In this document: positions 10,283 through 49,992 of the stretch, piece after piece
Position numbering within the stretch: position 1 is the stretch's first letter
How the letters are laid out: the number at the start of each line of letters is the position of its first letter
Assembly: GCA_027306715.1 (NCBI GenBank)
Contig: DAHUZG010000142.1
Coordinates: 1 to 55,490, forward strand
Source of the DNA: Acidimicrobiaceae bacterium
Lineage (GTDB): Bacteria; Actinomycetota; Acidimicrobiia; Acidimicrobiales; Bog-793
Reading direction: 5' to 3'
Length of the DNA: 55,490 nucleotides
The notes under the pieces: model-generated
The model's database searches: none
What the model was told of the DNA's origin: nothing
What the model saw: the letters and a program-made list of their open reading frames with translations, nothing else
Program-made: the position numbers and the translations under genes

Positions 10283-10322
10283 GGCGCTGTCCTTCCTCTC
10301 CGTGACAGATTCGGCCCGTGGG

Positions 10323-17806: not shown

Positions 17807-17866
17807 GAGCCGACCAGCGCCTGGCGGGTGCCGGGGCCACACTGGCGTCCGGCGAGGCGCCGGCAG

Positions 17867-17917
17867 CCGGGCACGCAGGCAACCCCGGCACGCAGGTAAC
17901 CCCGGCACGCAGGTAAC
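17867..17917. repeat. 17-bp direct repeat x3 (ccsggcacgcaggyaac)
   Basis: Three contiguous units ending about 8 nt before the GAAGGAG SD of the dioxygenase gene. Confidence 0.85.
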
Positions 17918-17938
17918 CCAGTGGAAGAAGGAGACCAG

Positions 17939-18862: not shown

Positions 18863-18917
18863 GCCGGCTGGTGCCGCCGAGGCCCCGGGGCGGGAGCCGC
18901 CCGGGCTCGCACGGGCC

Positions 18918-19279
18918 GGCAAGGTCGGCGACGAGCCGTTGCTGTTCGCGTCTCGGATGCGTGAGGGTCTGCTCGCAGCCTCGGTAACGATCGGCCTTCA
19001 GGCGATGGCCGAGGTGATGAACGCCGAGGTCACCGAGCTGGCCGGCCCGAAAACAAGGCGCGACAGCGTTGCGCGCCGCCTGCCGCGGCCTTGATGTCTC
19101 AGCGGGCATCTCGTTCGTGCTCGACGGCGGCGAGGCTCTGAAGGATCTGCGCTCGCTCGCCACGAGCCTCGAGAAGCTCAACCCCGACGTGGGGGCAGCC
19201 TTGCGCGAGGGGCTCGACGAGATGTTCACCGTCACCCGGCTCGAGGTGACCGGCACGCTGTTGATGACGCTCGCTGCGC
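18918..19279 (+). mobile_element. decayed IS transposase relic (frameshifted, internally deleted; family uncertain)
   Basis: Two frames carry transposase-like blocks: FASRMREGLLAASVTIGLQAMAEVMNAEVTELAGPK, and GISFVLDGGEALK...PDVGAALREGLDEMFTVTRLEV. The catalytic middle part is absent. Confidence 0.5.
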
Positions 19280-19435
19280 CCGAAGAAGAAGAAAGAGAGT
19301 CGGTCGGAATTCCCCGCAGTAGGCGCGCCAACTGCGCAGCTGGTGAACTCTGCCTAACAAGTATGAACTTGCTACACGTTTACTCCTCTGCTAAAGTGAG
19401 CAACGCCTCTCGATCTATCGAGCAGGAGGGGAAGC

Positions 19436-20515
19436 GTGGATTTCGGTCTGGTTATGACGTTCTCGAATCCAGTCGGCGACATTCCGTGTACCTACCTAGC
19501 CGGCAGCCAGATCGAGCAGGCGGTCCTCGCCGAGGAGCTCGGCTACCAACACGTGTGGACGGCTGGGCACCCTGGGACGAGGATGTATTTTCCGGCCCAG
19601 TTCCCGCTGCTCGGTGCAATGGCGGTGAAGACGAGTCGGATCCGCCTCGGCACCTACATCGTCGCGCTTCCACTCTTCCACCCGCTCCAGGTCGCTGAGG
19701 AGGCGGTAACGATCGACGTAATTTCGAACGGTCGCTTCGATCTTGGCATCGGTGCCGGGAATTTCCTCAATGATTTCGAAGCCTACGGAACAAGACGAGA
19801 ACAGCGTCCTGGCCGGATGGAAGACGGCCTCACGATCATCAGGGGGCTGTGGGGCGACGAAGAATTCTCCTACGAGGGCAAGTACTTTCGCATTCCTCGG
19901 GGATTCAAGCTCCATCCGAGGCCTGTTCAGAAGGAGCTGCCGTTGTGGGTGGCTGGGACGTCGGAGAAGGCGATCGATCGAGCAGCCCGGTTCGGAGCGC
20001 ACTTTGCTGCCACAGGGACCGGCTTCGGCTATTACGAATCGCGGCTGCGCGAGTACGGCTACGACCCGACCACCTTCTCCAAGGCGATCCTGCAGTTCGT
20101 CCATCTGGCGGAGACGACGGAGAAGGCATGGCAAGAGGTGGGAGACGCGGTGATTCGCTGGCTGGAGTACTACAAAGCGGAATTGGTCGAGAAGCATGAG
20201 GACTTCGAGAGCTTCACGCAACTTCCCGGTGGTGCTTTCGGTGTTGACCCGCTACCAGACCCGAGCGACATCGAGAACATGAAGAAGCTCAACTTCCTCG
20301 GCTCACCCTTCATCATCGGCGACCCGCAGACCGCTATCAACTGGGTCAGCAATGCAAGAGATATGGGTGTCACGCACGCCGCGATGTCAATGCAGTTCGG
20401 TGGCCTCCACCCGAAGCTGAGCGAATCGTCGATGCGCCTATTCGCGCACGAGGTGATCCCGGCATTTGCGGGTGAGCAGAGCAATCCCCGATCCGAGGGG
20501 TCGACCGACGCGTGA
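19436..20515 (+). CDS. LLM-class (luciferase-like) flavin-dependent oxidoreductase, paralog 1
   Basis: GTG start after a GGAGGGG SD. AEELGYQHVWTAGH.. and ..GRFDLGIGAGN.. blocks are typical of bacterial luciferase-like monooxygenases. Confidence 0.85.
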   Translation: MDFGLVMTFSNPVGDIPCTYLAGSQIEQAVLAEELGYQHVWTAGHPGTRMYFPAQFPLLGAMAVKTSRIRLGTYIVALPLFHPLQVAEEAVTIDVISNGRFDLGIGAGNFLNDFEAYGTRREQRPGRMEDGLTIIRGLWGDEEFSYEGKYFRIPRGFKLHPRPVQKELPLWVAGTSEKAIDRAARFGAHFAATGTGFGYYESRLREYGYDPTTFSKAILQFVHLAETTEKAWQEVGDAVIRWLEYYKAELVEKHEDFESFTQLPGGAFGVDPLPDPSDIENMKKLNFLGSPFIIGDPQTAINWVSNARDMGVTHAAMSMQFGGLHPKLSESSMRLFAHEVIPAFAGEQSNPRSEGSTDA

Positions 20516-20752
20516 AAAAGATCTTCTCTCGAAAAGACGACCGGGGGTGATCTGGCGAACGGCGATCCCCAGCAGTGGCGGGAGAGGATCCTCACGAAGG
20601 TCTACGGACACGCGGATCGTTCTCTCCGGACGTGTCATCGGACGGAACATGCCCTGGCTCCTCGACTCCCCACCGAGCCGCGGAAGCGATCCAAACATGG
20701 GTTCGTCGTGGGACCGCCCGGACAGCTCTTCTGACGCCTGAGGAGGCACAGC

Positions 20753-21865
20753 GTGAATTTCGGGGTCACATTCGGATTCGCCAACCTCAAGCCTGGCCAG
20801 ATCCCCAGCGCGCGTCTGTTTAAGAGCCAAATCGATCTTGCCGTTCTTGCGGAGGAGCTCGGCTTCGACCACATTTGGACTGCCGGACATCCTGCAACCG
20901 ATATGTACTGCCCTGCGCAGTTTCCACCCCTCGCAGCGATTGCCGCTCGTACCAACAGGATCCGGCTCGGCACATACATCGTGGCGCTACCGCTGTACCA
21001 TCCGCTCCAGGTGACCGAGGAAGCGGTCACGCTGGACGTACTCTCCGACGGGCGATTCGATCTCGGAGTCGGTGCTGGCAACTTCCTCCATGAGTTCGAG
21101 GCGTATGGAGTATCGCGGCGCGAACGTGCTGGGCGCATGGAGGAGGCGCTGACGATCATCCGCGGCTTGTGGACCGAAGAGTCCTTCTCCTTCGAGGGGA
21201 AGTATTGGCGAATTCCTCCCTTCTCGTTAAACCTGCGACCGGTTCAGGCGAACCCTCCGCTGTGGTGTGCAGCAACGGCCGAGGCTGCGTTCGACCGGGC
21301 CGCTCGCCACGGGTGTCACCTCGCTGGTACCGCAACTGGCTTCGACTACTACGAATCGCGACTGCGGGAGCATGGGCACGATCCCGCCGATTTCTTCAAG
21401 GGGATGCTCCAGGTCGTTCACCTCGCCGAGAAGACCGACGAGGCTTGGGAGCGGGCAGCGCCATCGATCCTCGCCCGAGTCCACCGCTACAAGCGCGAAT
21501 TCGACGCACACGACGACTTCGAAGTCTTCCGCCGTCAGCCGGGTGGTTACTTCGGTGTCGACCCCCTGCCCGACTCGGTCGACGACATCGACAAGATCCG
21601 CAGACTTCACTTCCTCGGCGCCCCGTTCGTCGTTGGCAGCCCCGAGGATGTTCGCCGAGCAGTAGAGAGTGCCCAGGACAAAGGCGTTACCCACCTCATC
21701 ATGAACATGGCGCCTCCGAGGCTCGACCCGCGCCTGACCGAGCACTCGATGCGCCTGTTCGCTCGTGAGGTCATGCCGGCGTTCCGGAAGCCCAGGACCG
21801 ATTCTGCGTTGCGACACGAGGCGGACAGAGGCACCCCCGACGCGGCAGTTCCCTTGAGGCGCTAA
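20753..21865 (+). CDS. LLM-class (luciferase-like) flavin-dependent oxidoreductase, paralog 2
   Basis: GTG start after a GAGGAGG SD. It is collinear with 19436-20515, with more than half of positions identical by eye. Confidence 0.85.
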   Translation: MNFGVTFGFANLKPGQIPSARLFKSQIDLAVLAEELGFDHIWTAGHPATDMYCPAQFPPLAAIAARTNRIRLGTYIVALPLYHPLQVTEEAVTLDVLSDGRFDLGVGAGNFLHEFEAYGVSRRERAGRMEEALTIIRGLWTEESFSFEGKYWRIPPFSLNLRPVQANPPLWCAATAEAAFDRAARHGCHLAGTATGFDYYESRLREHGHDPADFFKGMLQVVHLAEKTDEAWERAAPSILARVHRYKREFDAHDDFEVFRRQPGGYFGVDPLPDSVDDIDKIRRLHFLGAPFVVGSPEDVRRAVESAQDKGVTHLIMNMAPPRLDPRLTEHSMRLFAREVMPAFRKPRTDSALRHEADRGTPDAAVPLRR

Positions 21866-22039
21866 TGCGCGAGCCTAGAAAGTGTCTCATGGAGCAGTAC
21901 GGAGCATCTCCACATGCGGCTTGGGGCGCTGGCCCAGTTCGGAGCGGATTCACGCCACGTTTGATCAGGGGCGTGGTCCTGCAGTGGTTGGTCGCCCCGA
22001 TCGTCGCCCGGTCGCTCGAGAGGCGGGGGAGGTGATGCT

Positions 22040-22843
22040 ATGAGCCGCCTCGTCGAGTACGAGCGTACCGACGGAATCGTGACCATCACGCTCAACCGAC
22101 CGGAGAAGTTGAATGCCCTGAGTCCCGAGATGCTGCGCGAGCTGTGTGATGCGTGGACCCGGTACCGGGACGATGGGGAGGCGAAGGTTGCCATCTTCAC
22201 CGGTGCTGGCCGGGCGTTCACCGCCGGTGCTGATCTGAGCTGGTTCGAGCGCTCCCTCGAGGGTGAGGATCACCTCGGTCCGTTTCTCGACGTGGTCCAG
22301 AGCAACCCTTACTGGTCGGGCCGACTCGACAAGCCGACGATCGTGGCCGTAAAAGGTTGGGTGATCGGCGCCGGCTTCGATCTCGCTCTCCGTGCCGATC
22401 TGAGGGTCGCCGCCGAGAGCGCCACCTTCTGGATGCCCGAGGTGGGGCGCGGGAACATCGTCCCCATCTGGGACAACGTCCCCTACGCGATCGCTGCGGA
22501 GATCATGAGCGGCTTCCCGATTCCAGCACGTCGCGCCTACGAGGTCGGCCTCGTCAACCGGCTCGTCGGGGACGACGCCCTGCTGGACACGGCGGGGGAA
22601 TTGGCAGAGGAGCTGGCCTCCCGCCCTGTGCCCGTGCTTCGCCACGCCTTGAGAACGATCCGGGAGTTGAAGAACTCCCCCTTCGGCGTCTCTCTCGAGT
22701 CGATGCGACTCTACACGAACGAGCTGTCGAAGAACCTGATGACGACAGAGCAGCGGAAGCAGGCAGTCGACGCCTTGCTGGCTGCGAAGCGAACTGATTC
22801 TCAAAGATCTGAGCGACAAAGTGTTGATCCCAAAGGAGCATGA
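22040..22843 (+). CDS. enoyl-CoA hydratase/isomerase (crotonase) family protein
   Basis: ITLNRPEKLNAL..FTGAGRAFTAGADL oxyanion-hole region. The stop abuts the hyuA-like start. Confidence 0.85.
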   Translation: MSRLVEYERTDGIVTITLNRPEKLNALSPEMLRELCDAWTRYRDDGEAKVAIFTGAGRAFTAGADLSWFERSLEGEDHLGPFLDVVQSNPYWSGRLDKPTIVAVKGWVIGAGFDLALRADLRVAAESATFWMPEVGRGNIVPIWDNVPYAIAAEIMSGFPIPARRAYEVGLVNRLVGDDALLDTAGELAEELASRPVPVLRHALRTIRELKNSPFGVSLESMRLYTNELSKNLMTTEQRKQAVDALLAAKRTDSQRSERQSVDPKGA

Positions 22844-24946
22844 GTGATGAGCTTGCGAGTCTCGGTCGACAGTGGTGGCACGTTCACCGACGGGATCTTG
22901 ATCGACGAGCACGGCAGCGTCGCGACTGCGAAGGCGCACACGACGCCGAAAGACCTCACGCTGGGCACGATGGAGTGCCTCTCGCGCCTCGCTTCGGCCT
23001 ACGGCATCACTCGCGGTGACTTGCTGGCAAAGACGAGCACCATCGTCCACGGCACGACGCTTGCCACCAATATCGTAGCGACGAGCTCGGGTGCACGCTT
23101 AGGAACAATCGCTACGAGAGGCTACCGGGACCGCTTGAGCTTTCTGCACGTCGCCAAGGCAGATTTGAAAGGTGACATCCGAGAGGCCGAAGCCGACCTG
23201 TTCGACTTCCGGAGGAAGTACCCGGAGCCGCTCACCCCTCGCCGGCTGACGACCGAGGCGGACGAGCGGCTGAATTACAAGGGTGAGGTGCTCATACCCC
23301 TCGATGAGGAGAGCGTCCGGAAGGCAGTCGCTTACCTCAAGGAGCGAGAGGTTGAGGCGATCGCGGTACTCTTCCTCTTCTCGCACCTGAATCCGGCACA
23401 CGAGCTGCGCACGGGAGAGGTCATCAAAAAAGAGTGGCCCGAGGTGCACGTCTCACTCTCGCACCAGGTGCTGCCCGTATGGGGCGAGGTCGGGCGCTGG
23501 AGCACGACGAGCTTCAGTGCGTACGTCGCGCCGAAGGTGATCGACTACGTGTCGCGGATCGAGAAGCTGCTCCAGCAGAAGGGCTTCGCTGGAGAGCTTC
23601 TCTTCATGCAGTCGAACGGTGGCGTCGCGACGCCGGAGATCATCTGCGAAAATCCCGCTACTCTGCTCGCCTCGGGACCGGCCGCGGGCCCTTCGTTGGG
23701 GTTAGCCCTGGCCCGATCCCACGGTGCCGAGGACCTACTTTCGGTCGACATGGGCGGAACCAGCTTTGACGTGGCCGTCGTTCCCGAGGGGAGGGTCAAT
23801 GTGACCCAAAAGATGGTGGTCGAGGGAAAGCGTTACGCCCTGCCTTCGGTAGACGTGAACGCGGTAGGTGCGGGTGGTGGCTCGATCGCCTGGCTCGACC
23901 CGAGCGGCCGTCTCCAGGTTGGTCCGCAAAGCGCCGGCGCCTACCCAGGTCCCGCCTGCTATGGATTCGGGGGAACCGAGCCTACTGTCACCGACGCCGA
24001 CGTCGTGCTCGGTTACATCGATCCGGACTTCTTTATGGGCGGCGAGACGCGTCTGCACAAGGACCTGGCCGAACGGGCGATAGAGCAGCAAATTGCAGAA
24101 CCGCTGGGACTGTCGCTCGAAAAGGCAGCTGCAGCGATTTACGACGTAGTGAACGCGAAGATGGCTGGAGCGATCGGCGTCGTGTTCACGCGGCGGGGCT
24201 ACGACCCGCGCGACTTCGTGATCTGTTGCGGTGGAGGCGCTGGCGCTGTGCACGGGGCGCGGTTGATGCAGGAGCTCGGGATCAAGGACCTGCTCGTGCC
24301 AAAAGTGGCTCCGGTCTACTGCGCCTTCGGGATGATGTACGCCGATCTCCGTCACAACTTCACTCGCCCGTATCTCGCCGAGTCGACGAAGGTGGATCTC
24401 ACGAGGATCAACGATCTTTACCAGGTGATGGAGCAAGAAGTCGTCGAGATCCTCGAGCGAGAAGGTGTCGCTCGCGAGGACATGGTGATCGAGAAGACGA
24501 TCGACATGCGCTACTACGGGCAGGTTCGAGAGCAGACAGCAGACATGCCTCCGGGTATGGTCACAGAAGAGACGTTCGGAGTAGCTCAGTCGAACTTCCA
24601 CCAGAAGCACCGTACGGTGATCGGCTATGCCGACCAGAGCTACCCCACCGAAGTGGTCCGGCTCCATCTGGCCGGAACGGCAAAGGTCAAGCCGCCGGAA
24701 CCGCAGAAGGTATCGATAGATGGCGCCAACGCGGCGCGGACCCTGAAAGGCATACGGCCGGCATTCTTCAGCGAGTTCGACGACTTCGTCGATACGAGGA
24801 TCTACGACGGGAACCTTCTCAGTGCTGGCACCTCGCTCGAAGGGCCCTGCATCGTAGAAGAGCCGATGACCACCGTGGTGATCCCGCCGACGCTGATCCT
24901 GAGCGTGGACGAGTTCGGCAATTACACGACGATGACGAAAGGGTGA
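22844..24946 (+). CDS. hydantoinase/oxoprolinase A-type subunit (acetone/acetophenone carboxylase beta-like)
   Basis: 700 aa. The N-terminal VSVDSGGTFTDG ATPase motif and VDMGGTSFDV are present. Confidence 0.9.
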   Translation: MMSLRVSVDSGGTFTDGILIDEHGSVATAKAHTTPKDLTLGTMECLSRLASAYGITRGDLLAKTSTIVHGTTLATNIVATSSGARLGTIATRGYRDRLSFLHVAKADLKGDIREAEADLFDFRRKYPEPLTPRRLTTEADERLNYKGEVLIPLDEESVRKAVAYLKEREVEAIAVLFLFSHLNPAHELRTGEVIKKEWPEVHVSLSHQVLPVWGEVGRWSTTSFSAYVAPKVIDYVSRIEKLLQQKGFAGELLFMQSNGGVATPEIICENPATLLASGPAAGPSLGLALARSHGAEDLLSVDMGGTSFDVAVVPEGRVNVTQKMVVEGKRYALPSVDVNAVGAGGGSIAWLDPSGRLQVGPQSAGAYPGPACYGFGGTEPTVTDADVVLGYIDPDFFMGGETRLHKDLAERAIEQQIAEPLGLSLEKAAAAIYDVVNAKMAGAIGVVFTRRGYDPRDFVICCGGGAGAVHGARLMQELGIKDLLVPKVAPVYCAFGMMYADLRHNFTRPYLAESTKVDLTRINDLYQVMEQEVVEILEREGVAREDMVIEKTIDMRYYGQVREQTADMPPGMVTEETFGVAQSNFHQKHRTVIGYADQSYPTEVVRLHLAGTAKVKPPEPQKVSIDGANAARTLKGIRPAFFSEFDDFVDTRIYDGNLLSAGTSLEGPCIVEEPMTTVVIPPTLILSVDEFGNYTTMTKG

Positions 24947-24951
24947 GGGAA

Positions 24952-26781
24952 ATGGCGGCCGCGCAGATGCAAGCACCGACGGCGACCAGGGCGGCTGTCG
25001 TCGACCCGACCACGTTGTCTGTAGTCTGGAACCGCTTCGAGCACATCCTGGCTGAGATCGGAGACAAGGCACTCTACGCGACGCAGTCCTTCGTGATGGC
25101 GAACGTTCGCGACCTCGGCCAGAGCCTGCTCGATCCACGAGGCGACATCGTGGCTGTCGCCGCATATGTGCCGATACATGTCTTCACGGCAGAGGTATCG
25201 GTGAAGTCCTTCCTGCAGAAGTTCGAGGGCGACTTTCACCCTGGTGACTTCTTTCTCGGGAATGATGCTTACATCATCCGAAGCGGCCACCTCCCGGACT
25301 GGACGCTCCTGCGGCCGATCTTCTACGAAGACGAGCTATTCGGGTTCTTCCAGTTCCGGGGCCACATGGCCGACACGGGTGGTTTCCTGCCGGGAGGCTA
25401 TGCGCCGGGCGCCTACGACATCATCGCGGAGGGCTTGAACATCCCGCCGATCCGGATCATCAAGGAGGGCGTGCTCGACGAGGAGCTGTGGGGCCTGGTC
25501 AAGCGGAACATCCGCAACTCGGACGTGGTCGAGATGGACGTCTTCAACGTGAACGGTGCCATGGCTCAGGGCGAGGCCGAGCTGAGCCGCCTACTTGACA
25601 AATATGGCATCGAGACCGTGAAGCAGTGCATGGAGGAGATGCTGGCATCTGGCGAACGGGCTGCACGGGCCCAGATCGCAACAATGCGGGATGGTGTCTA
25701 CTACGGAGAGTCAGGGACAGACTGGGACGGCCAGACGGACAAACCGGTCAACGTGCAGGTCAAGCTCACTATCGAAGGGGACGAGATGACATTCGACCTC
25801 TCCGAGAGCGATCCTCAGTGCTCGTTCATCAACCTCCCATGGGGGACGACCGTCTACTCGTGCATGGAGGCCGTCTATTCGATGCTCGACCCGCATGTCC
25901 CGAAGAACAGCGGCAGCATGCGCCCGGTTCACGTGGTGGCAAAGGAGGGTACGGTGGTGAACCCCACCTACCCGGCCACGGTGGGCGCTTCGCAGATCAC
26001 GATCAGCGTGCCGCTGGTCGACGCATGCTGGGAGGCCCTCGCGCAGCTGCTACCCGAGCGAGCAATGGGTGGCTATTGTCGACACCACTGCCCGATCAAT
26101 ATCGGCATGGACCCTCGCGTGATCGACCCGCGTACCGGGACTGTGAAGCAGTACTTCGGAGAGACGTTCGCGAGCGACGGCAGTGGCGGTGCTATGAGTG
26201 GCTTCGACGGCTGGCAGGGCGTCGGGAACTACCGCTTCGTTGGCTGCATGGTAAGGCCGGACATGGAGGTCTTTGAGACGCAGATCCCCTATCGCGTGAT
26301 GCGCTACGAGCTCCTCCAGGACTGGGAGGGAGCGGGGGAGTACCGCGGGGGGCCCGGCGTATACCTCGAGATGGTCTGCAATGAAGACTTGCCGCCGGAC
26401 GCAGCGACCCTCCTTCAGACCGGTAACAGCGATGGAATGCGCTTCGCGCCAAAGGGCGTCGCGGGCGGCGGAGACGGGCGCCTGAACGAGATGTGGATCG
26501 GGAACCCTCTGTCCGGGGAGCGGCGGCGGCTCCCGACGATGAGCCTCGAGCACGTCGCGCCGGGTGAGATCGTCTATCACTGGTCCTCGGGAGGAGGTGG
26601 CTGGGGAGATCCGCTGAGCCGTGCGCTGGCGAGCGTGCGGGAAGATGTCATCGAGGGCTTGGTCTCGCTCACGCGCGCTCGCGATGTCTACGGCGTTGTC
26701 GTCGACGAGGCGACGATGGAGGTCGACGAGCAGGCGACCGAAGTGCTGCGCAAAGACATCAAGGCAAAGAGAACTTTGTAG
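24952..26781 (+). CDS. hydantoinase B/oxoprolinase-type subunit, paralog 1
   Basis: ATG at 24952, 5 nt after the hyuA-like stop. DPTTLSVVWNRFEHI.., ..FQFRGHMADTGG.. and C-terminal GGGGWGDPL. The ORF-track extension back to 24226 overlaps hyuA out of frame. Confidence 0.9.
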   Translation: MAAAQMQAPTATRAAVVDPTTLSVVWNRFEHILAEIGDKALYATQSFVMANVRDLGQSLLDPRGDIVAVAAYVPIHVFTAEVSVKSFLQKFEGDFHPGDFFLGNDAYIIRSGHLPDWTLLRPIFYEDELFGFFQFRGHMADTGGFLPGGYAPGAYDIIAEGLNIPPIRIIKEGVLDEELWGLVKRNIRNSDVVEMDVFNVNGAMAQGEAELSRLLDKYGIETVKQCMEEMLASGERAARAQIATMRDGVYYGESGTDWDGQTDKPVNVQVKLTIEGDEMTFDLSESDPQCSFINLPWGTTVYSCMEAVYSMLDPHVPKNSGSMRPVHVVAKEGTVVNPTYPATVGASQITISVPLVDACWEALAQLLPERAMGGYCRHHCPINIGMDPRVIDPRTGTVKQYFGETFASDGSGGAMSGFDGWQGVGNYRFVGCMVRPDMEVFETQIPYRVMRYELLQDWEGAGEYRGGPGVYLEMVCNEDLPPDAATLLQTGNSDGMRFAPKGVAGGGDGRLNEMWIGNPLSGERRRLPTMSLEHVAPGEIVYHWSSGGGGWGDPLSRALASVREDVIEGLVSLTRARDVYGVVVDEATMEVDEQATEVLRKDIKAKRTL

Positions 26782-26839
26782 GGGCTGGACTCGATGCAGA
26801 CGCGCCCGACGGTGGGCGGGACGGGAAAGGGAGCGTGAG

Positions 26840-27091
26840 TTGCGTACGGTGAGTGTGACGCGGAGCGCGCCAGAAAAGGTCGTCTACCCTCCTGGCCCGA
26901 GTGGTGACAGGTGGGCCGACTCGCTGGACCGTGCCCCTGAGCGGGTGCGGGCTGATGTCCTGGAGGGCCTCGTTTCGCTCGGTCGGGCGCAGGAGGTTCG
27001 CAGCGTGGTCCTCAGCGACGCCACTCTCGCTGTAGGTGTCGGCGTGCCCGTCCTCCGGCCGGTCGCGCTCGGAGCGGGACCGGACGTATGA
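26840..27091 (+). pseudogene. relic of a hydantoinase-B C-terminus (possibly still a small coupled ORF)
   Basis: The 83 codons EKVVYPPGPSGDRWADSLDRAPERVRADVLEGLVSLGRAQEVRSVVLSDATL align with the last ~55 residues of both HyuB paralogs (..GGGGWGDPLSRALASVREDVIEGLVSLTRARDVYGVVVDEATM). The GGGGWG motif is degraded. There is a TTG start with an upstream GGGAAAGGGAG, and the stop overlaps the next start (ATGA). Confidence 0.55.
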
Positions 27092-28881
27092 CGGGCATCG
27101 GCACCACCAGCACAGTCGATCCCACGACATTGTCAGTCGTGTGGAACCGGCTCGATCAGATCCTTACCGAGATCGGGGAGAAGGTGCTCCATGCGACGCA
27201 GTCGTTCGTGATGGCGAACGTCCGCGACCTTGGCCAGTCGTTCCTCAACCGCGATGGCGAACTTGTCGCTGTCGCCGCGTTTCTTCCCAGTCACATGTTC
27301 ATCTCCGAGGTCGCGATCAAAGGGTTCCTCGAGAAGTTCGGAGACGACCTGCATCCCGGCGACTTGATGATCGGAAACGACCCTTACATCGTCCGAAGCG
27401 GACACCTCCCTGACTGGACATTCATCCGGCCAATCTTCTACGGACGAGAGTTGCTCGGCTTCTTCCAGTTCCGCGGTCACATGGCCGACACCGGCGGGTT
27501 CCTGCCTGGCGGATATGCTCCGGGGGCCTACGACATCATTGCCGAAGGCTTGAACATCCCACCTATCCGAATCATCAAGGCAGGCGTGGTCGACGAGGAG
27601 CTGTGGGGCCTCGTCCTCCGGAACGTCAGGAACCCCGACGTCGTCCGGATGGACGCCATGTTGATCAACGGTGCGATGGAGCAAGGCGACCAGGATCTGA
27701 TCAGATTGGTCGAACGGTACGGATCTGGAGCGGTCCTGGCCTGCATGGACGAGATGATCGCTGCCGGCGAGCGCGCGGCTCGAGCCGAGATCGCCAAGAT
27801 CCCCGACGGCGACTACTACGGCGAGTCGGCCACCGACTGGGACGGCCAAACGGACCGCCCGGTCTGGGTTCGGGCGAAGTTGACGGTTGAGGGCGAGAGC
27901 CTGACCTTCGATCTTTCTGAGAGCGACCCCCAGGCGACGTTCGTCAACACTCCGTGGGGAACGACGCTCTACGCCGCGACCCGAACGGTGTTCGCGATGA
28001 TCGACCCTCACGTTCCAAAGAACCACGGCAGCATGAAGCAGGTCAGCGTCGTGACCAAACCGGGGACGGTGGTGCATCCGATCTACCCTGCCACAGTCGG
28101 TGCCAGCGGGATCAGCGTCGGCGGGATCATCACCGAGGCCTGTCAGCTGGCACTCGCGCAGGCGCTGCCGGATGCCTCATTCGGGATGTTCGCCAGGCAC
28201 CTGTGCCCGATCAACGTCGGCATGGACCCCGACACGATCGACCCACGGACCGGGACCATCCGGCAGTACTTCGCCGAGCACTTCGCCAGCGACGGCAGCG
28301 CAGGTGCCTTCAAAGGGTACGACGGGTGGCCTGGAATCGGCTACTTCGGCTTCGTTGGCTGCCTTGTCCGCGCCGATATCGAAGTGTTCGAGACCCAAGT
28401 CCCCTTCTGGGTCCGCCGGTACGAGCTGCTCACCGACTGGGAAGGGGCAGGTGAGTTCCGCGGCGGCCCCGGCGTCTACGTCGAGATGATAGCGAGCGAT
28501 CGCCCACCGGAGGCGCCCGCCCTTCTGACGACTGGAAACAGCGACGGGAGCCGATTCCCGCCACGCGGCGCCGCCGGCGGGCTCGACGGCCCGAAGGCTG
28601 AGATGTGGATAGAGAACCCAGAGACAGGTGGTACGCGGATCCTGCCAACGATGGCGAACATGTTCATCGCGCCCGGGGAGATCTGCCACACGCGTGCACC
28701 TGGCGGAGGCGGGTGGGGCAACCCGCTGCACCGCAATTCCGAGCGGGTGCTCGCAGACGTGGTGGACGGGCTCGTCTCGGCCGACCGAGCGAAGCAGATC
28801 TATGGCGTAGTGGTGGACCCCGCGACCCTCACTCTCGACCTGGTTGAGACTGCGCGACTGCGACAAGATCGGATGGCTTGA
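27088..28881 (+). CDS. hydantoinase B/oxoprolinase-type subunit, paralog 2
   Basis: 597 aa, collinear with 24952-26781. About two thirds or more of positions are identical by eye, including FQFRGHMADTGGFLPGGYAPGAYDIIAEGLNIPPIRIIK. Confidence 0.9.
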   Translation: MTGIGTTSTVDPTTLSVVWNRLDQILTEIGEKVLHATQSFVMANVRDLGQSFLNRDGELVAVAAFLPSHMFISEVAIKGFLEKFGDDLHPGDLMIGNDPYIVRSGHLPDWTFIRPIFYGRELLGFFQFRGHMADTGGFLPGGYAPGAYDIIAEGLNIPPIRIIKAGVVDEELWGLVLRNVRNPDVVRMDAMLINGAMEQGDQDLIRLVERYGSGAVLACMDEMIAAGERAARAEIAKIPDGDYYGESATDWDGQTDRPVWVRAKLTVEGESLTFDLSESDPQATFVNTPWGTTLYAATRTVFAMIDPHVPKNHGSMKQVSVVTKPGTVVHPIYPATVGASGISVGGIITEACQLALAQALPDASFGMFARHLCPINVGMDPDTIDPRTGTIRQYFAEHFASDGSAGAFKGYDGWPGIGYFGFVGCLVRADIEVFETQVPFWVRRYELLTDWEGAGEFRGGPGVYVEMIASDRPPEAPALLTTGNSDGSRFPPRGAAGGLDGPKAEMWIENPETGGTRILPTMANMFIAPGEICHTRAPGGGGWGNPLHRNSERVLADVVDGLVSADRAKQIYGVVVDPATLTLDLVETARLRQDRMA

Positions 28882-29057
28882 GCGTGGTCGCTTTCCCGGC
28901 GGACGGTTGAGGTGACCTGCTGGACTCGGCGCAGCCTCGTCCCAACACTGGTGGAGACCCGGGAAGAAGGCGCTTGTCGGAGACAGGCAACGAGCGCAGA
29001 CAGGATCCGCCGTCACCCGGGCGATCATGCCAGCGGAATTCGAGTCAGAGGTAACGA

Positions 29058-31442
29058 ATGCCCGCCGACCTGAGCTTTCTACGCGTACTGGACGCATCCG
29101 ACTCCGTTGCAGGCCAGTTCTGCGGTCGCTTGTTCGCAGATCACGGGGCAGAGGTCGTACTCCTCGAACCCATGTCCGGCACGACGACGAGGCGCTCAGA
29201 GGACCTCTTTTGGCATCTCAATTGTGGTAAGCGATCGCTTGTCGTCGATGAGCGGGCCCGCGACACGCGCGACCGTCCCCTGCTGTCCGCGACCGACCTG
29301 TTGATCGTTGATCATGGCAAGTCCGCCTTCGCCGGAGACCTCAGCGCGTACCCGCAGCTCGTCGTGTGCTGGCTCTCGGCGTTCGGCGAGCAGGGCCCGT
29401 ACCGGCAGTGGCAAGGGACAGAGATCGTCTACCAAGCGTATTCAGGAGCCGCCTACTGCACGGGCGCTCCCGGCCACGAGCCGCTCTACGGTTTTGGGGA
29501 GCGCGCGTCTTACTCGGCCGGTATGGCTGCATATGTCACAGCGCTGGCGGCGCTCTACGAGCGAGACCAATCCGGCCTCGGTCAGGCTACGCACGTCTCA
29601 GTCGCTGAGACGGCCGTGTCGATATCTCAGAACCTCGTCTCGCAATACTCTTACAACGGAACCTACCCAGACCGTGAACGCTACGACGGACCGCTAGGTC
29701 GGTATCGGTGCTCGGATGGATGGATCGCCCTCTTCGTCAAGCCCGGCTTCTGGTCAGATGCATGTGACGCCTTCGGATTGAAGACGTTGCGCGACGATCC
29801 TCGGTTCAGCGATGGCGAAGCGCTCATCCGGAACTGGCCGCTCGCGTCAGACTTGATCGCGGATAGCGTCCGCAGTCGCCGCTCTCAGGAGGTCGTCGAG
29901 GCCGGCCAGGCACTGCGGATGCCCGTGGAGCTCGTCACAGACGTCGCTGACGTGTATTGCTGTCCTGATCTCGCGGCTCATGACTACTGGATCGAGGTCT
30001 CCACCCCTGTCGGTACGCGAAGGCGTCTCGGCTCGATATCCCGTACTAGCTCGCAGATATCACCGCCAGATACGAGGCCACCAGAGCTCGGTGCCGATAC
30101 CGACGCCATCGTCGCTACGTGGTCGAAGCGGGAGCCAGTCGCTTCACGTGCCGCACGAGTAGGTGACGCGCGCACGAGGCCGCTCGATGGAATCCGGGTG
30201 GTCGAGCTGACAACGGCTTGGGCTGGGCCGATGGCTGGCCGTACGCTCGCTTATCTCGGCGCGGAGGTGATCAAGGTCGAATGGCGTGGTCGTCTGGACG
30301 TGTGGCGCGGACAGCGCGGTTCACGCCGCTACCCAGGCGGCGAACCAGGAGAACGTCCGTATAACCGCAACAACATGTTCAACACGCAAAATCATGACAA
30401 GCTGTCTGTCGAGCTCGACCTGAAGACGTGTATCGGCCAAGAGGCAGTGCGCAACCTGATTGCAAAGAGTGATGTCGTTATAGGCAATCTGGGTCCTGGC
30501 GTGCTGAAGCGACTTAGGCTCGGCTATGGTGACCTCACCGCTCTACGGCCTGACGTCATACTTCTTGAGATCACGGGCTTCGGTGAACATAGTGGCTTTT
30601 CATCCCACGCTGCTGTGGGTCCCACCATCGAGGCCACTACGGGCGGCATGAAGCTGATCAGCTACGCGGACGGGCAGCCGCAGTTCACGGGCTTTGCGTT
30701 ACTCGACCCGATCGGCGGTATCACCGGCGCCGGCATGGTGCTCACCGCCCTCTTGGCACGAGGGAGAACGGTAGGAGGATCCCACGTCGACCTGAGCCTT
30801 CGCGAGGTGGCGCTTCAATGGCTCGGCGAGTACCTGATCAGGTACGGACGGACGGGCTCGAGTCCCGAGCCGCTCGGAAACGCTTCTCCTGAGGCAGTCC
30901 CGCATGGCATTTATCCAGCTGCCGGTGCAGATGAGTGGATCGCCTTGGCGGTGGAGACCGCGCCGCAGTGGGCCGCGTTGTGTGAGCTGATTGGAAGATC
31001 CCACTGGGCAGACGATCCAACGTTCACCACGATCGAGAACCGCAGGCAGCATACGGCGGAGATCACCTCTGCGATCGTCGGTTGGTCCTGCCAGCATTCG
31101 AAACGTGAGGCTGCCGAGTCGCTGCAGGCGCGTGGCGTGCCGGCGTCCCCGGTCAATAGTGGACGTGACCTACACGATGACCCACACCTTTTCGCTACGG
31201 AGTTTCTTAACACGATGAACCATCCCGACGCTGGAATCCACCGCTACCCGGGCCTCCCGTTCCGCCTTGACACGACTCCGGGGAAAATATCTCGGCCGGC
31301 GCCACTATTGGGAGCTGACACCGAGGATGTGCTCCACAGGATACTTGGCTGGACAGACGAGCAGATTGCGGCGCTGCAAGACGAGCAGATCGCTGCGGCG
31401 GAGAATCCTAGGCGGCAACGTGAGAGCAATCCCGTGCGCTGA
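29058..31442 (+). CDS. fused tandem family-III (CaiB/BaiF) CoA-transferase
   Basis: 794 aa, about twice the normal length. There are two N-terminal-type CoA-binding openings: LRVLDASDSVAGQFCGRLFADHGAEVVLLEP at residue ~8, and IRVVELTTAWAGPMAGRTLAYLGAEVIKVE at residue ~378. Confidence 0.85.
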   Translation: MPADLSFLRVLDASDSVAGQFCGRLFADHGAEVVLLEPMSGTTTRRSEDLFWHLNCGKRSLVVDERARDTRDRPLLSATDLLIVDHGKSAFAGDLSAYPQLVVCWLSAFGEQGPYRQWQGTEIVYQAYSGAAYCTGAPGHEPLYGFGERASYSAGMAAYVTALAALYERDQSGLGQATHVSVAETAVSISQNLVSQYSYNGTYPDRERYDGPLGRYRCSDGWIALFVKPGFWSDACDAFGLKTLRDDPRFSDGEALIRNWPLASDLIADSVRSRRSQEVVEAGQALRMPVELVTDVADVYCCPDLAAHDYWIEVSTPVGTRRRLGSISRTSSQISPPDTRPPELGADTDAIVATWSKREPVASRAARVGDARTRPLDGIRVVELTTAWAGPMAGRTLAYLGAEVIKVEWRGRLDVWRGQRGSRRYPGGEPGERPYNRNNMFNTQNHDKLSVELDLKTCIGQEAVRNLIAKSDVVIGNLGPGVLKRLRLGYGDLTALRPDVILLEITGFGEHSGFSSHAAVGPTIEATTGGMKLISYADGQPQFTGFALLDPIGGITGAGMVLTALLARGRTVGGSHVDLSLREVALQWLGEYLIRYGRTGSSPEPLGNASPEAVPHGIYPAAGADEWIALAVETAPQWAALCELIGRSHWADDPTFTTIENRRQHTAEITSAIVGWSCQHSKREAAESLQARGVPASPVNSGRDLHDDPHLFATEFLNTMNHPDAGIHRYPGLPFRLDTTPGKISRPAPLLGADTEDVLHRILGWTDEQIAALQDEQIAAAENPRRQRESNPVR

Positions 31443-31479
31443 AGTGTTCAGACCCCCGGTAGTTGATCAACGAGACAGG

Positions 31480-31561
31480 TGCGGGTTATTTGAAGGCGAG
31501 GATAGTCCGCTCCATGGGCGCCACCGGGAGCTGCTTCGACCATGCGAGCGCCGAGAGCTTC
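31480..31561 (+). mobile_element. IS3-family transposase (rve C-terminal) fragment
   Basis: RIVRSMGATGSCFDHASAESF matches the conserved IS3 OrfB block SMG..G.C[YF]DNA.AESFF. There is no further similarity on either side. Confidence 0.4.
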
Positions 31562-31671
31562 CCCATCTGCTACGAGCTATCGCTGGCCCGAATCAAGCAA
31601 GCTGCTGAACATCGTGTCCACTGTCTCTGGAAAAGCTCAGCGGCGCTGGATCTGATGCGGAAGGAACAAAT

Positions 31672-33294
31672 TTGAGTCTGGCCGAATCCGCCCAGCCGCT
31701 GGAGACCGAGGAGCAGGAGGACCGAGTCGTCGTCCGCCTGATGCGGCCCGACGTGAAGAACGCCATTGGTCTCGCTACCGTGGAAATGCTCCACGAGGTC
31801 TGCGCGGGGCTGGAACGCCGACCGCGAATGCTCGTCCTCACGGGACACGAGGGCGTGTTCGCCTCGGGTGCCGATGTTCGTGAATTGCGAGACCCGAATC
31901 GCCACGACGCGCTCGCCGGAATCAACAGCTCGCTGTTCGAGCGCATTCGGCGGCTGCCACTACCCACGGTAGCCGCTATCGATGGCCTCGCGTTCGGAGC
32001 GGGGGCTGAGCTCGCCTACGCGTGTGACTTTCGGGTCGCCACCGAACGCGCTCGCTTCGGCAACCCGGAAGTCTCGCTGGGAATCCTGGCTACGGCGGGC
32101 GCCTGCTGGAGGCTGCGCGAGCTCGTCGGTGAGGCGCTCGCGTACGAGATGTTGTTCGCCGGACGAACGCTCGACGCCCAAGCTGCGGTCGAGTCCCACC
32201 TCGTGACCGAGGTCGCGGGGCAGCGTGATCTCCTCGCGGCGGCCCACGCCCTCCTCGACAAGATCGGGAGGGGTACGCCGCTCGCACTCCGCCTGACGAA
32301 ACTCGCGCTGCAAATTCCAGCCAGCGCGCACCCGGCGTTCGACAACGTCGCACAAGCGGTGTTCTTCGAGACCGAGGAGAAGCACGCTCGGATGACGACC
32401 TTTCTGGAGCGGCATGATCGATCGCCTGATCCTTCGGAAGAATCGTCGACAGCGCCGCCGCGAGCAGCAGGCGTGCTCGGTGGTGGCCGGATGGGGGCAG
32501 GCATCGCCCATGCGCTGTTGTCTGCGGGCTGCCGAGTGCAACTGGTCGAGATCACGGTAGACGCCGGCGAGTCCGCTCGCGCACGAATAGAGGCGTCTCT
32601 GCGCGAGAGCGACCGGCGCGGCTCGCTGCCCGTGGCCGTCACGACCGCAATGGCGCGACTCTCGATCAGCAGCGAACCCAGCTCGCTCGTCGGCTCGGAG
32701 ATCGTCGTCGAGGCCCTGCCGGAAGACCCGGCCCTGAAGGCGCGACTTCTCGTCGCGGTCGAGGCCGTGCTCGACCCCGGCGCGCTGCTGGCTACGAACA
32801 CGAGCTCGTTGTCGATCGACGAGCTGAGCGCGGCACTCGAGCGCCCGCGCAACTTCATAGGGCTGCATTTCTTCAACCCCGTGCCAGCGAGCGAGCTGGT
32901 CGAGGTGGTCGTCGGCTCACGCACGAGCGACGACACGGTGGAGCGCGCCCGGCGATGGGTGGAGGAGCTAGGCAAGACTTCGGTGACGATCCACGACTCG
33001 CCGGGATTCGCCACGAGCCGCTTGGGGGTCGCGCTGGGGCTGGAAGCGATCCGTATGCTCGAAGAGGGGGTGGGTTCTGCCGAGGACATCGACACGGCCA
33101 TGGTCCTTGGCTACCGACACCTCGTCGGGCCGCTGCGGCTCACCGACCTCGTCGGCCTCGACGTACGCCTCGCGATCGCAGAGCACCTCGCGAGCCGCCT
33201 CGGTCCGCGCTTCGAGCCACCCGAGGTTCTACGCCGCAAGGTTGAGGCCGGCGAGCTCGGTCGCAAATCCGGGCAGGGCTTCTACAGCTGGTGA
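31672..33294 (+). CDS. bifunctional enoyl-CoA hydratase / 3-hydroxyacyl-CoA dehydrogenase (FadB-like fusion)
   Basis: N-terminal crotonase region (..NAIGLATVEML..GVFASGADVREL..) plus a C-terminal NAD fingerprint VLGGGRMGAGIAHAL and 3-hydroxyacyl-CoA dehydrogenase blocks (..GLHFFNP..). TTG start as in the ORF track. Confidence 0.85.
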   Translation: MSLAESAQPLETEEQEDRVVVRLMRPDVKNAIGLATVEMLHEVCAGLERRPRMLVLTGHEGVFASGADVRELRDPNRHDALAGINSSLFERIRRLPLPTVAAIDGLAFGAGAELAYACDFRVATERARFGNPEVSLGILATAGACWRLRELVGEALAYEMLFAGRTLDAQAAVESHLVTEVAGQRDLLAAAHALLDKIGRGTPLALRLTKLALQIPASAHPAFDNVAQAVFFETEEKHARMTTFLERHDRSPDPSEESSTAPPRAAGVLGGGRMGAGIAHALLSAGCRVQLVEITVDAGESARARIEASLRESDRRGSLPVAVTTAMARLSISSEPSSLVGSEIVVEALPEDPALKARLLVAVEAVLDPGALLATNTSSLSIDELSAALERPRNFIGLHFFNPVPASELVEVVVGSRTSDDTVERARRWVEELGKTSVTIHDSPGFATSRLGVALGLEAIRMLEEGVGSAEDIDTAMVLGYRHLVGPLRLTDLVGLDVRLAIAEHLASRLGPRFEPPEVLRRKVEAGELGRKSGQGFYSW

Positions 33295-33394
33295 CACGTC
33301 CCCGATCTAGTTCGAGGTGGGAGACCCGACGCACTACGGGAAGCGACCGCCAAAGCCGCCGGGACTGCCACCCCAAGCTCGGAGCCGGCCTGTC

Positions 33395-33963
33395 CAAAGG
33401 GGATAGGCGCTACCGCGCGCGGATGGCCGAGGTGGGTGCGGTCTACGAACTGGCGCCCTTGGCCGAAGTTGAGAGCCACAGCCTGGAGGTTGCGGCCGTA
33501 GTCGACCTGATCGATGTTATGGAGCACATCTGGTCTGCCGCGTGGTGCTTCTCCGCCCACAACGACCAGGCCGTAGAGGACTGGGTGCGCGCCAAGACGC
33601 TCGCCGTGCTGGAGGGCAATGCCCGTGACGCCGCTGCGGGGATCCACCGGCGAGCCACGGTCGCCCGACTCACCAAGAAGAAGCGCAAGGAGGCTGATGC
33701 CTGTGCCACCTACCGGACCAACAAGGCTCTCTACCTCGATCACCCGACGGCGTTGGCGGCCGGGTAGCCCATCGCCACCGGCATCATCGAGGGGACCTGC
33801 CGATACCTTGTTGCCGACCGGATGGTCTTATGCAGTCCCCAAGCTACGCGCGGTCCGCTCCAACGGCGATCTCGACGACTACTGGGCCTTTCACCTCGAC
33901 CACGAACGGCAGCGAGCCCACGAATCCCGCTACGCGGACGGCGCGATCCCCCTTGCCGCGTAG
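33395..33963 (+). mobile_element. ISKra4-like transposase pseudogene (5'-truncated, internally deleted, at least 2 frameshifts)
   Basis: Blocks spread over three frames: RMAEVGAVYE; [40 protein letters not shown]; [19 protein letters not shown]; and [31 protein letters not shown]. Confidence 0.6.
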
Positions 33964-34484
33964 TCGCTCCTACAGCGCCGCACCCGATACAGATGGTGGG
34001 CGACCTGATTGGAAAGGAGCGGATCGACAGGCCGACGTTCGCCCGCAACACACTGCCGTAGCTCAGGCGCCGGACGCTCGCCAGGTACTCCCTGAACAGC
34101 GGCTATTCGGTGCGCCTGAGTGAATGCGCAGGTCAGGGTGCCATGCGGGGACCTTCAATGTAGCTGCCCGACTTCTGGCGCAAGCGGTGGTTGTGGTGCA
34201 AAGCCGCGCCTGAGCTGCGAGGCTCGCTACCTCGAGCAGCGCTGCCCGGACTCCAACATGTTTCTGCCGGCGGTTGGGCGCCGTTGGCTCGCGTCCGCAC
34301 TGCTCTGAGCTCGTCGTCATCTCGGACATCCCCGCCGCCGAGCAGCTCGCCCGGACGCCCGGCGCTCGCACGATGACCGTGACAACCTGAGCGTATGATC
34401 ACCGCGGAGGGCACTAGAAAATTCTGCGACTGGCGGGATCTTTTCGGCCCCGCCGGCGTCGGGCAATCAGGGAGGGGAGAGAAC

Positions 34485-35693
34485 GTGGACAGATCAACGA
34501 CGACCCGCGCTCGCCGGGTGGCGGTGGCGGCGGCGCTGTGCACAGTGCCGGGCATGGTCGCAGCCGGCTCGCTGGCGGCAGCCGCCTCGGTGCCGCACCG
34601 CGGCGCCGTCCATCACGCTTCGGCAAAGAGCCCCGCTGCCGGGGTGAAGGCGGCCGAGGCGAACATCGCCCGCTATACGCGGGCCTTAGCGAGGTACCCG
34701 TCGCCGGGGCCGGCGCTGAACGCCAAGGCGGTGGCCAAGCTGAAGGGCAAGACGGTCCTCTTCGTGCCCTACAGCACCTCGATCCAGTACTTCACCGAGA
34801 TGGCGTCGGCGATGCAGACGGCCTTCTCCCATGTCGGGATCAAGGTGACCACCTGCGACGCCCACTTCGTCCCCTCCGCCGCTGCCAGCTGCGTGCTCTC
34901 GGCGAAGGCGGCGGGAGCCTCGGCGGTCGTCACCGGGGCGATCTCCTACAACCTCATCTCGACCGCGTACCAGCAGCTCAAGTCCGAGGGCGTGCCGGTG
35001 CTGCTCGCTGACGCGCCGGCCGCCGACGGGATCAAGAACAGCGACAAGTTCGCCTTCCAGGACAGCGACCACACCCTCGGGCAGGTCGGCACGCTGGCGG
35101 CTGACGAGATCATCGCCAAGTCCGACGGCAAGGCGCACGTGCTGTTCATCGAGATCATGGACACGGCGTCGATCGTCCACGAGGGCCAGTCGATGCTGTC
35201 GGAGTTCTCCAAGAACTGCCCGGACTGCAAGGTCACGACGCTCCAGTTCAACACCGCCAACCTCGCGCAGCTGGCATCGGCGGTCTCGAGCAAGCTGATC
35301 GCCGACCCGTCGATCGACTACATCCTGCCGCAGACCGACGCCGACGTCGCCGAGGCGCTCTCCGGCGCCCAGAGCGCCAATGCCAGCTCGCGGGTGCAGG
35401 GGGTCTCGACCGATGGCACGCTCGGGGCACTGCAGGACATCTCGAGCCACCAGTTCCTGTTCGCCGACGTCGGCTACAGCGCCGCCTACGACGGCTGGAC
35501 CTCGGCTGACGGGGTGCTGCGGATGCTGACCGGAGCGCCGGTCCCGCTCTTCCCCTACGACCCGATCCGTGTCTTCGACGCCTCCAACGTGAAGGGCCTG
35601 CAGCTCACGACGGCGGCGTCGAACTCGAACATCTGGTACGGGACGAACGCCTTCTACCACCTGTTCTGGAAGCTCTGGACGGGCAAGCCGTAG
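34485..35693 (+). CDS. sugar-type ABC transporter substrate-binding protein (periplasmic binding protein family)
   Basis: GTG at 34485 follows a GGGAGGGGAGAG SD. There is a signal peptide (RRVAVAAALCTVPGMVAAGSLAAAAS). It is followed by a double-ATPase and an RbsC-type permease. Confidence 0.75.
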   Translation: MDRSTTTRARRVAVAAALCTVPGMVAAGSLAAAASVPHRGAVHHASAKSPAAGVKAAEANIARYTRALARYPSPGPALNAKAVAKLKGKTVLFVPYSTSIQYFTEMASAMQTAFSHVGIKVTTCDAHFVPSAAASCVLSAKAAGASAVVTGAISYNLISTAYQQLKSEGVPVLLADAPAADGIKNSDKFAFQDSDHTLGQVGTLAADEIIAKSDGKAHVLFIEIMDTASIVHEGQSMLSEFSKNCPDCKVTTLQFNTANLAQLASAVSSKLIADPSIDYILPQTDADVAEALSGAQSANASSRVQGVSTDGTLGALQDISSHQFLFADVGYSAAYDGWTSADGVLRMLTGAPVPLFPYDPIRVFDASNVKGLQLTTAASNSNIWYGTNAFYHLFWKLWTGKP

Positions 35694-35724
35694 CAGGGCG
35701 CCAGGCGGCGACGGCAGCGGCGTC

Positions 35725-49754: not shown

Positions 49755-49940
49755 TCCGTCCCCCTCTGTCCGTGCACCTGAGAGCTTCGCCGGCACGCTG
49801 CCGGCTTCCCCCTTCGGTGAGCCGGCGATTGTCGCCGCCGACCTCTCTTCAGAGACAGCCGTGCCGCTGCGGTCCGTTGGCCTGAGAGATTCCGGGGAGG
49901 TTGCTCCTTCGGCGTCCCGCTCGGGGACTCTCCCGCAGTG
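49755..49940 (-). promoter_or_regulatory. tandem glycine riboswitch (two aptamers)
   Basis: The minus strand reads CGGGAGAGTCCCC..GCCGAAGGAGCAACC..CTCTCAGGCCAACGGACCGC, then CTCTGAAGAGAGG..CACCGAAGGGGGAAGCC..GCTCTCAGGTGCACGGACAGAGG. Both match the GGAGAG / CCGAAGGRGCAA / CTCAGG..GGAC consensus. It ends about 95 nt upstream of gcvP. Confidence 0.85.
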
Positions 49941-49992
49941 GTCGGTGGCTGCAGACGCCATCCTACCGCCTGGCGGTGCGCGGCCCGTGAGG

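Follow-up and report, generated by a model that had tools for sequence, protein, structure and literature searches.

How did a run of catabolic genes with a much lower G+C content (GC) than its surroundings come to lie between two unrelated host operons, and what might these genes do together? The question is raised by contig DAHUZG010000142.1 of assembly GCA_027306715.1 (Acidimicrobiaceae bacterium), an entire metagenome-type contig of 55,490 bp that was analysed as a whole and is referred to here as the window. The block in question extends from about 19.3 to 34.4 kb. We consider it likely that this block is foreign DNA, most likely from another high-GC bacterium, that was inserted, probably in multiple steps, between the aromatic-catabolism and sugar ATP-binding cassette (ABC) operons of its host, and that it is now a fixed, non-mobile island carrying one catabolic module. 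A foreign origin is the best explanation for the break in composition.

Composition and gene content of the block

GC amounts to ~0.62 between 19.3 and 31.7 kb and ~0.67 from there to 34.4 kb, compared to ~0.72 in both flanks. Windows of 1 kb stay at 0.70-0.75 as far as 18.5 kb, fall to 0.60-0.66 between 19 and 31.5 kb, reach 0.655-0.69 between 31.5 and 36 kb and rise to 0.70-0.77 thereafter, in agreement with the sharp drop in GC claimed in an earlier note on this DNA from counts over three short stretches, which were reproduced exactly on recounting (33/60 and 35/60 in the block, 44/60 in the flank). Genes were called from the strong bias of this genome in GC at third codon positions (GC3), and ten gene starts match catalogued proteins exactly. 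GC3 reaches 0.922±0.022 in the flank genes (n=29, minimum 0.866) versus 0.768±0.041 in the block genes (n=8, maximum 0.81), the two ranges being disjoint (Mann-Whitney p=5e-8), and GC at first and second codon positions (GC1, GC2) is likewise below the flank values in the block. A leave-one-out model of synonymous codons assigned 37 of 37 genes to their own side, i.e. block or flank. GC-corrected and size-matched tetranucleotide correlations range from 0.85 to 0.92 between the flanks and from 0.79 to 0.84 between block and flank, with a block-flank difference of p=7e-5 in 4-kb chunks. The block therefore deviates on all the measures (GC, GC3, tetranucleotides) for which a comparison had been proposed earlier, its GC3 and codon usage are unlike those of the flanks, and it has the deviating composition and codon usage typical of genomic islands.

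The left change point is sharp and located at ~19.2-19.3 kb (19214 by two-segment likelihood), at the right-hand end of a relic of an insertion sequence (IS) of the IS256 family, while an inner change point at 31688 adjoins an IS3-like scrap. The block is thus made up of segment A (19.3-31.7 kb, GC 0.62) with seven genes and segment B (31.7 to ~34.4 kb, GC 0.67) with a FadB-like gene, an ISKra4 relic and a spacer. The features, in positions of the window and including open reading frames (ORFs), decayed genes and one gene of the right flank, are as follows.

18915..19284, plus strand: IS256/Mutator-family transposase relic, with its N-terminal part (18915-19091) and its C-terminal part (19099-19284) in different frames
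19285..19435, plus strand: AT-richer leader, GC ~0.54-0.58 in 200-bp windows, with a GGAGG ribosome-binding site ahead of LLM1
19436..20515, plus strand: LLM1, a luciferase-like (LLM class) oxidoreductase (PF00296, E=5e-58; GC3 0.75; start confirmed)
20753..21865, plus strand: LLM2, tandem paralogue of LLM1 (58% amino acid identity to LLM1; GC3 0.73; start confirmed)
22040..22843, plus strand: crotonase-family enoyl-CoA hydratase/isomerase (PF00378, E=3e-34)
22847..24946, plus strand: HyuA, hydantoinase/oxoprolinase A subunit (Pfam domains Hydant_A_N, Hydantoinase_A and Hydant_A_C)
24952..26781, plus strand: HyuB1, hydantoinase B/oxoprolinase subunit (PF02538, E=9e-131; start confirmed)
26783..27034, plus strand: decayed C-terminal remnant of a third HyuB copy (residues ~507-593; 41-43% identical)
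27088..28881, plus strand: HyuB2, paralogue of HyuB1 (65% amino acid and ~73% nucleotide identity to HyuB1)
29058..31442, plus strand: two-domain family-III (CaiB/BaiF) CoA-transferase of 794 amino acids (PF02515 in two stretches, E=1e-155)
31478..31564, plus strand: C-terminal scrap of ~29 codons of an apparently IS3-family-like transposase (tblastn E=0.05, matches in annotated IS3 transposase genes)
31672..33294, plus strand: FadB-like fusion of enoyl-CoA hydratase (ECH) and 3-hydroxyacyl-CoA dehydrogenase, 540 amino acids (ECH_1, 3HCDH_N, 3HCDH; GC 0.68, GC3 0.80; start confirmed)
~33390..33963, plus strand: ISKra4-family transposase pseudogene (NF033572, E=8.5e-10, profile positions 282-375 of 422)
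33964..34484, no strand: ORF-free spacer of ~520 bp, GC ~0.66, within which lie the right boundary of the block and the leader of the gene for the host sugar-binding protein
46687..49662, minus strand: gcvP, a housekeeping gene of the right flank

All eight intact genes of the block are located on the plus strand, and no other ORF of coding-type composition occurs in the block on either strand. The earlier note had proposed ten intact genes, a number that has to be corrected to eight (two LLM oxidoreductases, crotonase, HyuA, two HyuB, the double CoA-transferase and the ECH/3-hydroxyacyl-CoA dehydrogenase fusion); the gene families and the uniform orientation it described are borne out by the domain matches. 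LLM1 is nearest to the NCBIfam model TIGR03619 (F420-dependent LLM) with a score under the cutoff, and the CoA-transferase, which has the lowest GC3 of the block (0.69), is nearest to models for dicarboxylate and formyl-CoA transferases, none of which reaches its cutoff. Both LLM1/LLM2 and HyuB1/HyuB2 are pairs of tandem paralogues. The gap of 306 bp between HyuB1 and HyuB2 holds the remnant of the third HyuB, matching over ~85 amino acids; that this fragment is a functional small ORF was rejected, as it has no coding-type GC3 bias. The stop codon of the crotonase gene abuts the start of HyuA, and HyuB1 starts 6 nt past the stop codon of HyuA, i.e. HyuA and HyuB show start/stop coupling. In the non-coding parts of the block, Rfam gave no match even at E<=0.1, and the block is not enriched in promoter- or terminator-like sites.

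Insertion-sequence relics, flanks and origin of the block

Remnants of mobility genes near the borders, another hallmark of genomic islands, are present as the IS256 and ISKra4 relics at the edges and the IS3-like scrap inside. The IS256 and IS3 fragments were missed by NCBIfam and were seen via tblastn against annotated plasmids. Both pieces of the IS256 relic match inside annotated IS256-family or 'mutator type' transposase genes (E=1e-5 and 2e-6) and are 58 bp apart here versus ~700 bp in an intact copy (CP003180.1), therefore ~650 bp of the catalytic core have been deleted. Hence, the frameshifted and deleted transposase relic that had been postulated for the left edge is real, and so is the ISKra4-like pseudogene at the right edge. 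The latter is 5'-truncated and frameshifted: its N-terminal two thirds are gone, its frame is interrupted by a stop codon at 33765 and shifts near 33830, and with 38 bits against the NF033572 cutoff of 205 bits it is a pseudogene fragment and not an intact member of the family. The ~500 bp following it were correctly described as being without a convincing ORF (33964-34484), and the sugar-binding-protein gene starts thereafter with GTG at 34485, with GGAGG ahead of it. The IS3-type fragment proposed for the interior of the block (31478-31564) does match annotated IS3 transposase genes, although at E=0.05 its assignment as IS3-like is marginal.

With IS relics on both edges and all genes being co-directional, the block might be regarded as an IS-bounded mobile unit, e.g. 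a composite transposon, that transposed as a whole and was later immobilised by decay of the bounding IS copies. However, two copies of the same IS are required for a composite transposon, and the edge relics belong to different families (IS256 on the left, ISKra4 on the right) with no matching arms or duplications, so a composite transposon was rejected. Moreover, terminal inverted repeats and a target-site duplication were not detected, the IS256 relic has a host-like GC3 (0.83-0.90 in its specific frames, nearer the host value than that of the block genes), and the inner seam and the third IS family imply stepwise assembly. An IS-bounded unit thus seems unlikely. A classical integrative island was rejected as well, given that there is no integrase, tRNA or flanking direct repeat. 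The earlier note had suggested a horizontally acquired module that was since immobilised by IS decay. Its first half stands, as the block is a compositionally foreign, coherent, single-strand module with dead IS fragments between unrelated host operons, while immobilisation by IS decay does not agree with three different families, the lack of paired ends or direct repeats and the host-like left relic. The relics mark a recombination-prone spot, and nothing shows that they ever made a transposable unit.

A stepwise, recombination-driven assembly at an IS-rich site is indicated by the inner seam, by IS fragments of three unrelated families, by the host-like GC3 of the IS256 relic and by what is left of the third HyuB. 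These features do not suggest a single transposable unit, and we infer that such a mosaic origin is at least as probable as acquisition in one event. Foreign DNA would have entered a recombination-prone gap between the aromatic-catabolism operon and the sugar ABC operon of the host, with the three IS fragments, the third-HyuB remnant and the inner seam as possible scars of stepwise insertion, and the block, carrying no movement machinery of its own, would now be fixed and non-mobile.

The block sequence itself is real: a second metagenome-assembled genome (MAG) and an independent assembly contain parts of it at 99.7-100% identity. A 3.2-kb contig (L081, GCA_027315075.1) is 99.7% identical to positions 25877-29130, with 10 differences that are all silent or intergenic and an identical HyuB2 protein. 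In the independent assembly (run SRR13766253), one contig (L111) is 100% identical over 19930-22350 save a 60-bp indel, another (L112) covers ~31.5-33.5 kb, judged from gene coordinates, and a third (L110) represents the right flank (34425-37130). The 60 bp that L111 does not have, at 20588-20647 between LLM1 and LLM2, are either a population indel polymorphism or an assembly difference.

An assembly chimera, in which a false in silico join at IS-related sequence would have attached a low-GC block from another organism in the sample to the flanks, is quite improbable. It would fit a window that is one complete metagenome-assembled contig, block edges that both coincide with IS-derived sequence, and independent contigs of just 2-3 kb that cross no junction, one of which (L110) starts at 34425 within the right spacer. 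However, two false joins would be required in one contig. Assemblers are misled by high-copy identical repeats, and the edge relics originate from different IS families and are unique and degenerate (deletion, frameshift, in-frame stop); no repeat within the region connects the junctions either. Further, the block and flank contigs stem from the same run, each being recorded in two samples, and in tetranucleotide signature the block remains fairly near the flanks (r ~0.8).

The flanks have one common composition in the tetranucleotide comparison and can be assigned to the host. Upstream of the block lies an aromatic-catabolism cluster (LysR regulator, flavin adenine dinucleotide (FAD) monooxygenases, extradiol dioxygenase, FAA-family hydrolases) and downstream a sugar ABC transporter and, further on, gcvP; this annotation agrees with the earlier statement that the content of the block is distinct from the flanking aromatic and sugar-uptake genes. 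Directly upstream of gcvP, tandem glycine riboswitch aptamers (RF00504, 64.8 and 43.8 bits) were found at 49756-49945 on the minus strand, a classic riboswitch-gcvP arrangement that supports the right flank being host core DNA. The best identity of GcvP in the protein collection is 73%, and its labelled top matches are Acidimicrobiales/Acidimicrobiia MAGs, so judging from these similarities the host is probably an Acidimicrobiales-type actinobacterium. The window proteins form singleton 90% clusters, therefore the host has no close sequenced relative.

The extradiol dioxygenase adjoining the block has a best relative of 57% identity in the genome-contig scan, and neither the block genes nor the flank arrangement of the window occurred in any of 80 loci with dioxygenase homologues (0/80), which are too remote to be empty sites. 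The closest relatives of HyuA are 66-72% identical, while its taxon-labelled relatives (56-62%) are Deltaproteobacteria, Deferrisomatales and Burkholderiaceae MAGs. For the CoA-transferase there is no homologue above 49%, and its taxon-labelled relatives are Actinomycetota (42-44%) and Alphaproteobacteria (39-41%). The proposed check for best hits in a different phylum is thus only suggestive: the nearest labelled relatives of HyuA are non-actinobacterial, those of the CoA-transferase are Actinomycetota.

Such Actinomycetota relatives would also suit a native, vertically inherited region whose low GC3 is due to weak expression or relaxed codon selection, as would the only modest tetranucleotide shift and the absence of phylogenetic or empty-site proof of transfer. 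We nevertheless consider this highly improbable, as GC3 drops by 15 points together with shifts in GC1 and GC2, and these changes are restricted to a single uninterrupted block whose edge, at an IS relic, is step-like. The other 29 genes, including presumably weakly expressed catabolic and transport genes, keep a GC3 of >=0.87, and the three IS fragments are concentrated in the block or at its edges, with none elsewhere among the annotated genes of the window.

A foreign block between host operons is therefore favoured by its composition, the assignment of the flanks to the host, the relics and scars, the 0/80 dioxygenase loci and the non-actinobacterial HyuA relatives. Several points weigh against it. 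The window contains no tRNA genes (0), there is no integrase domain among its profile matches, and no flanking direct or inverted repeats or paired ends were found at the block edges in the repeat comparison. None of the independent contigs L081, L110, L111 and L112 spans a junction, all ending short. No empty site or presence/absence polymorphism was shown, because there is no close relative in the collections. The taxonomic signal of the block proteins is mixed, and the tetranucleotide shift is modest (r ~0.8), so the donor is not clearly of a distant lineage.

Some further observations concern the upstream flank and the aromatic genes. An ORF at 11525-12085 (minus strand) covers only positions 266-432 of 462 of a cytochrome P450 profile, with ~130 bp to the next gene, and looks like a 5'-truncated P450 pseudogene. 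Four paralogous FAD_binding_3 aromatic-ring monooxygenases are present in the window, two of them in 9146-11456 (minus strand) and the others at 16667-17806 and 38401-39516; the tandem pair (9146-10282 and 10323-11456) shares 76% protein identity. In most of the distant homologous loci (Streptomyces, L014-L076), the FAA-family hydrolase comes directly after the extradiol dioxygenase on the same strand, and here the IS256 relic and the block come after the dioxygenase, with the FAA hydrolase homologues upstream on the opposite strand (16667-18862 region). It may be that a rearrangement of the host operon took place here.

Predicted function of the module

Both subunits of the HyuA/HyuB family are present, with full-profile Hydant_A_N, Hydantoinase_A and Hydant_A_C in one subunit and Hydantoinase_B in the adjacent one. 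The best NCBIfam model is caprolactamase alpha for HyuA (634 bits vs a cutoff of 1000) and caprolactamase beta for HyuB1 (304 bits; 304/296 for the HyuB pair, vs a cutoff of 1000). The best PDB matches are 6YRA_A for HyuA (E=8e-147) and 6YRA_B for HyuB1, 6YRA being a caprolactamase structure (PMC8453981), with 7HK5 as another relative. Caprolactamase is thus nearest to the HyuAB pair, N-methylhydantoinase comes next, and acetone carboxylase is much more distant. In Pseudomonas jessenii, a HyuAB-type caprolactamase occurs together with a family-III CoA-transferase, ECH and 3-hydroxyacyl-CoA dehydrogenase (PMC6061476).

The order ECH-HyuA-HyuB was found in only one other locus (L107; GCA_037444965.1, JBBILK010000107.1, 5316-8400), with amino acid identities of 59% for ECH and 71% for HyuA, and there the ECH stop likewise abuts the HyuA start, which hints at a crotonase that is functionally tied to the HyuAB enzyme. 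The contexts of the other close HyuA homologues (L108, L109) have a different arrangement, and no relative of HyuA closer than 42% was found in annotated plasmids. A metagenome scan with the CoA-transferase protein gave no matches. An alignment-based scan with the same protein recovered 23 distant loci (36-48%) with a crotonase as a frequent neighbour, LLM occasionally and Hyu never, and the closest CoA-transferase homologues (47-49%) adjoin MaoC hydratases and IclR regulators and not a cluster of the block type.

The domain content, the nearness to caprolactamase, the HyuA-HyuB coupling, the order in L107 and the P. jessenii precedent are the reasons for reading the block as one co-directional catabolic module. 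By analogy, its function is likely an ATP-dependent ring opening of the lactamase/hydantoinase type followed by CoA-dependent steps. An ATP-dependent HyuA/HyuB enzyme would open a lactam or cyclic-amide-type ring or, less likely, carboxylate a ketone; the resulting acid would be activated by the two-domain family-III CoA-transferase, and the crotonase and the hydratase/3-hydroxyacyl-CoA dehydrogenase fusion might then convert the CoA ester. Flanking redox steps may fall to the two LLM oxidoreductases. Both the order of these reactions and the class of the substrate are what we infer from the gene set. This assignment is challenged by the scores for the CapA/CapB equivalogs (NF050156/NF050157), which are far under the cutoffs, so that membership in caprolactamase was rejected. 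Furthermore, no aminotransferase, aldehyde dehydrogenase, acyl-CoA dehydrogenase, thiolase, regulator or transporter is found among the block genes, and the full eight-gene arrangement has no second instance among the contexts of HyuA and CoA-transferase homologues and the annotated plasmids.

A more far-reaching and rather doubtful idea is that the ECH-HyuA-HyuB1-HyuB2 core, in which one HyuA-type and two diverged HyuB-type subunits are translationally coupled to the crotonase, and the double CoA-transferase after it constitute a so far uncharacterised system for ATP-dependent ring opening or carboxylation, with CoA thioesters as its substrates or as the compounds to which it directly hands over. 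If true, this would be a new reaction type in the hydantoinase/acetone-carboxylase superfamily, located on a mosaic island of an uncultured Acidimicrobiia lineage.

Comparison with known systems and significance

Examples of catabolic islands and IS-associated modules in soil bacteria are catabolic transposons bounded by IS1071 and islands of the integrase type, e.g. the clc element. Like these, the block consists of co-directional catabolic genes of atypical composition between unrelated host operons with IS sequences alongside. Unlike these, it has no integrase, tRNA target, direct repeats or paired IS copies, its IS fragments derive from three families and are all dead, and its host is an uncultured Acidimicrobiales-like bacterium. 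With the caprolactam genes of P. jessenii it shares a relative of the two-subunit HyuA/HyuB-type lactamase as well as a family-III CoA-transferase, an enoyl-CoA hydratase and a 3-hydroxyacyl-CoA dehydrogenase; there, caprolactamase CapA/CapB is accompanied by an adjacent adipate beta-oxidation cluster (PMC6061476). The block differs in having two HyuB paralogues plus a remnant, a fused CoA-transferase and two LLM oxidoreductases, and in having no omega-aminotransferase, aldehyde dehydrogenase, acyl-CoA dehydrogenase, thiolase or IclR regulator. The HyuA/HyuB superfamily also includes the acetone and acetophenone carboxylases (PDB 5M45/5SVB and 5L9W), among which there are heteromers whose large subunits are paralogous, and whose products enter CoA-dependent metabolism. 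However, the HyuB of the block scores ~57 bits to the alpha subunit of acetone carboxylase vs 246 bits to caprolactamase beta, the block has no gene for a small gamma subunit, and it is the HyuB-type and not the HyuA-type subunit that is duplicated.

Soil actinobacteria commonly carry islands of deviating composition with decayed IS fragments, and the block is most likely one more ordinary genomic island of this kind, from an under-sampled lineage; it leaves current understanding unchallenged. It documents the flow of catabolic-module genes into a poorly sampled, uncultured Acidimicrobiales-like lineage, and its HyuA/HyuB-type set may be of interest for mining ATP-dependent lactamases for polyamide and lactam biocatalysis. 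A modest upside is that the core of HyuA, two HyuB, ECH and the double CoA-transferase might encode new chemistry.

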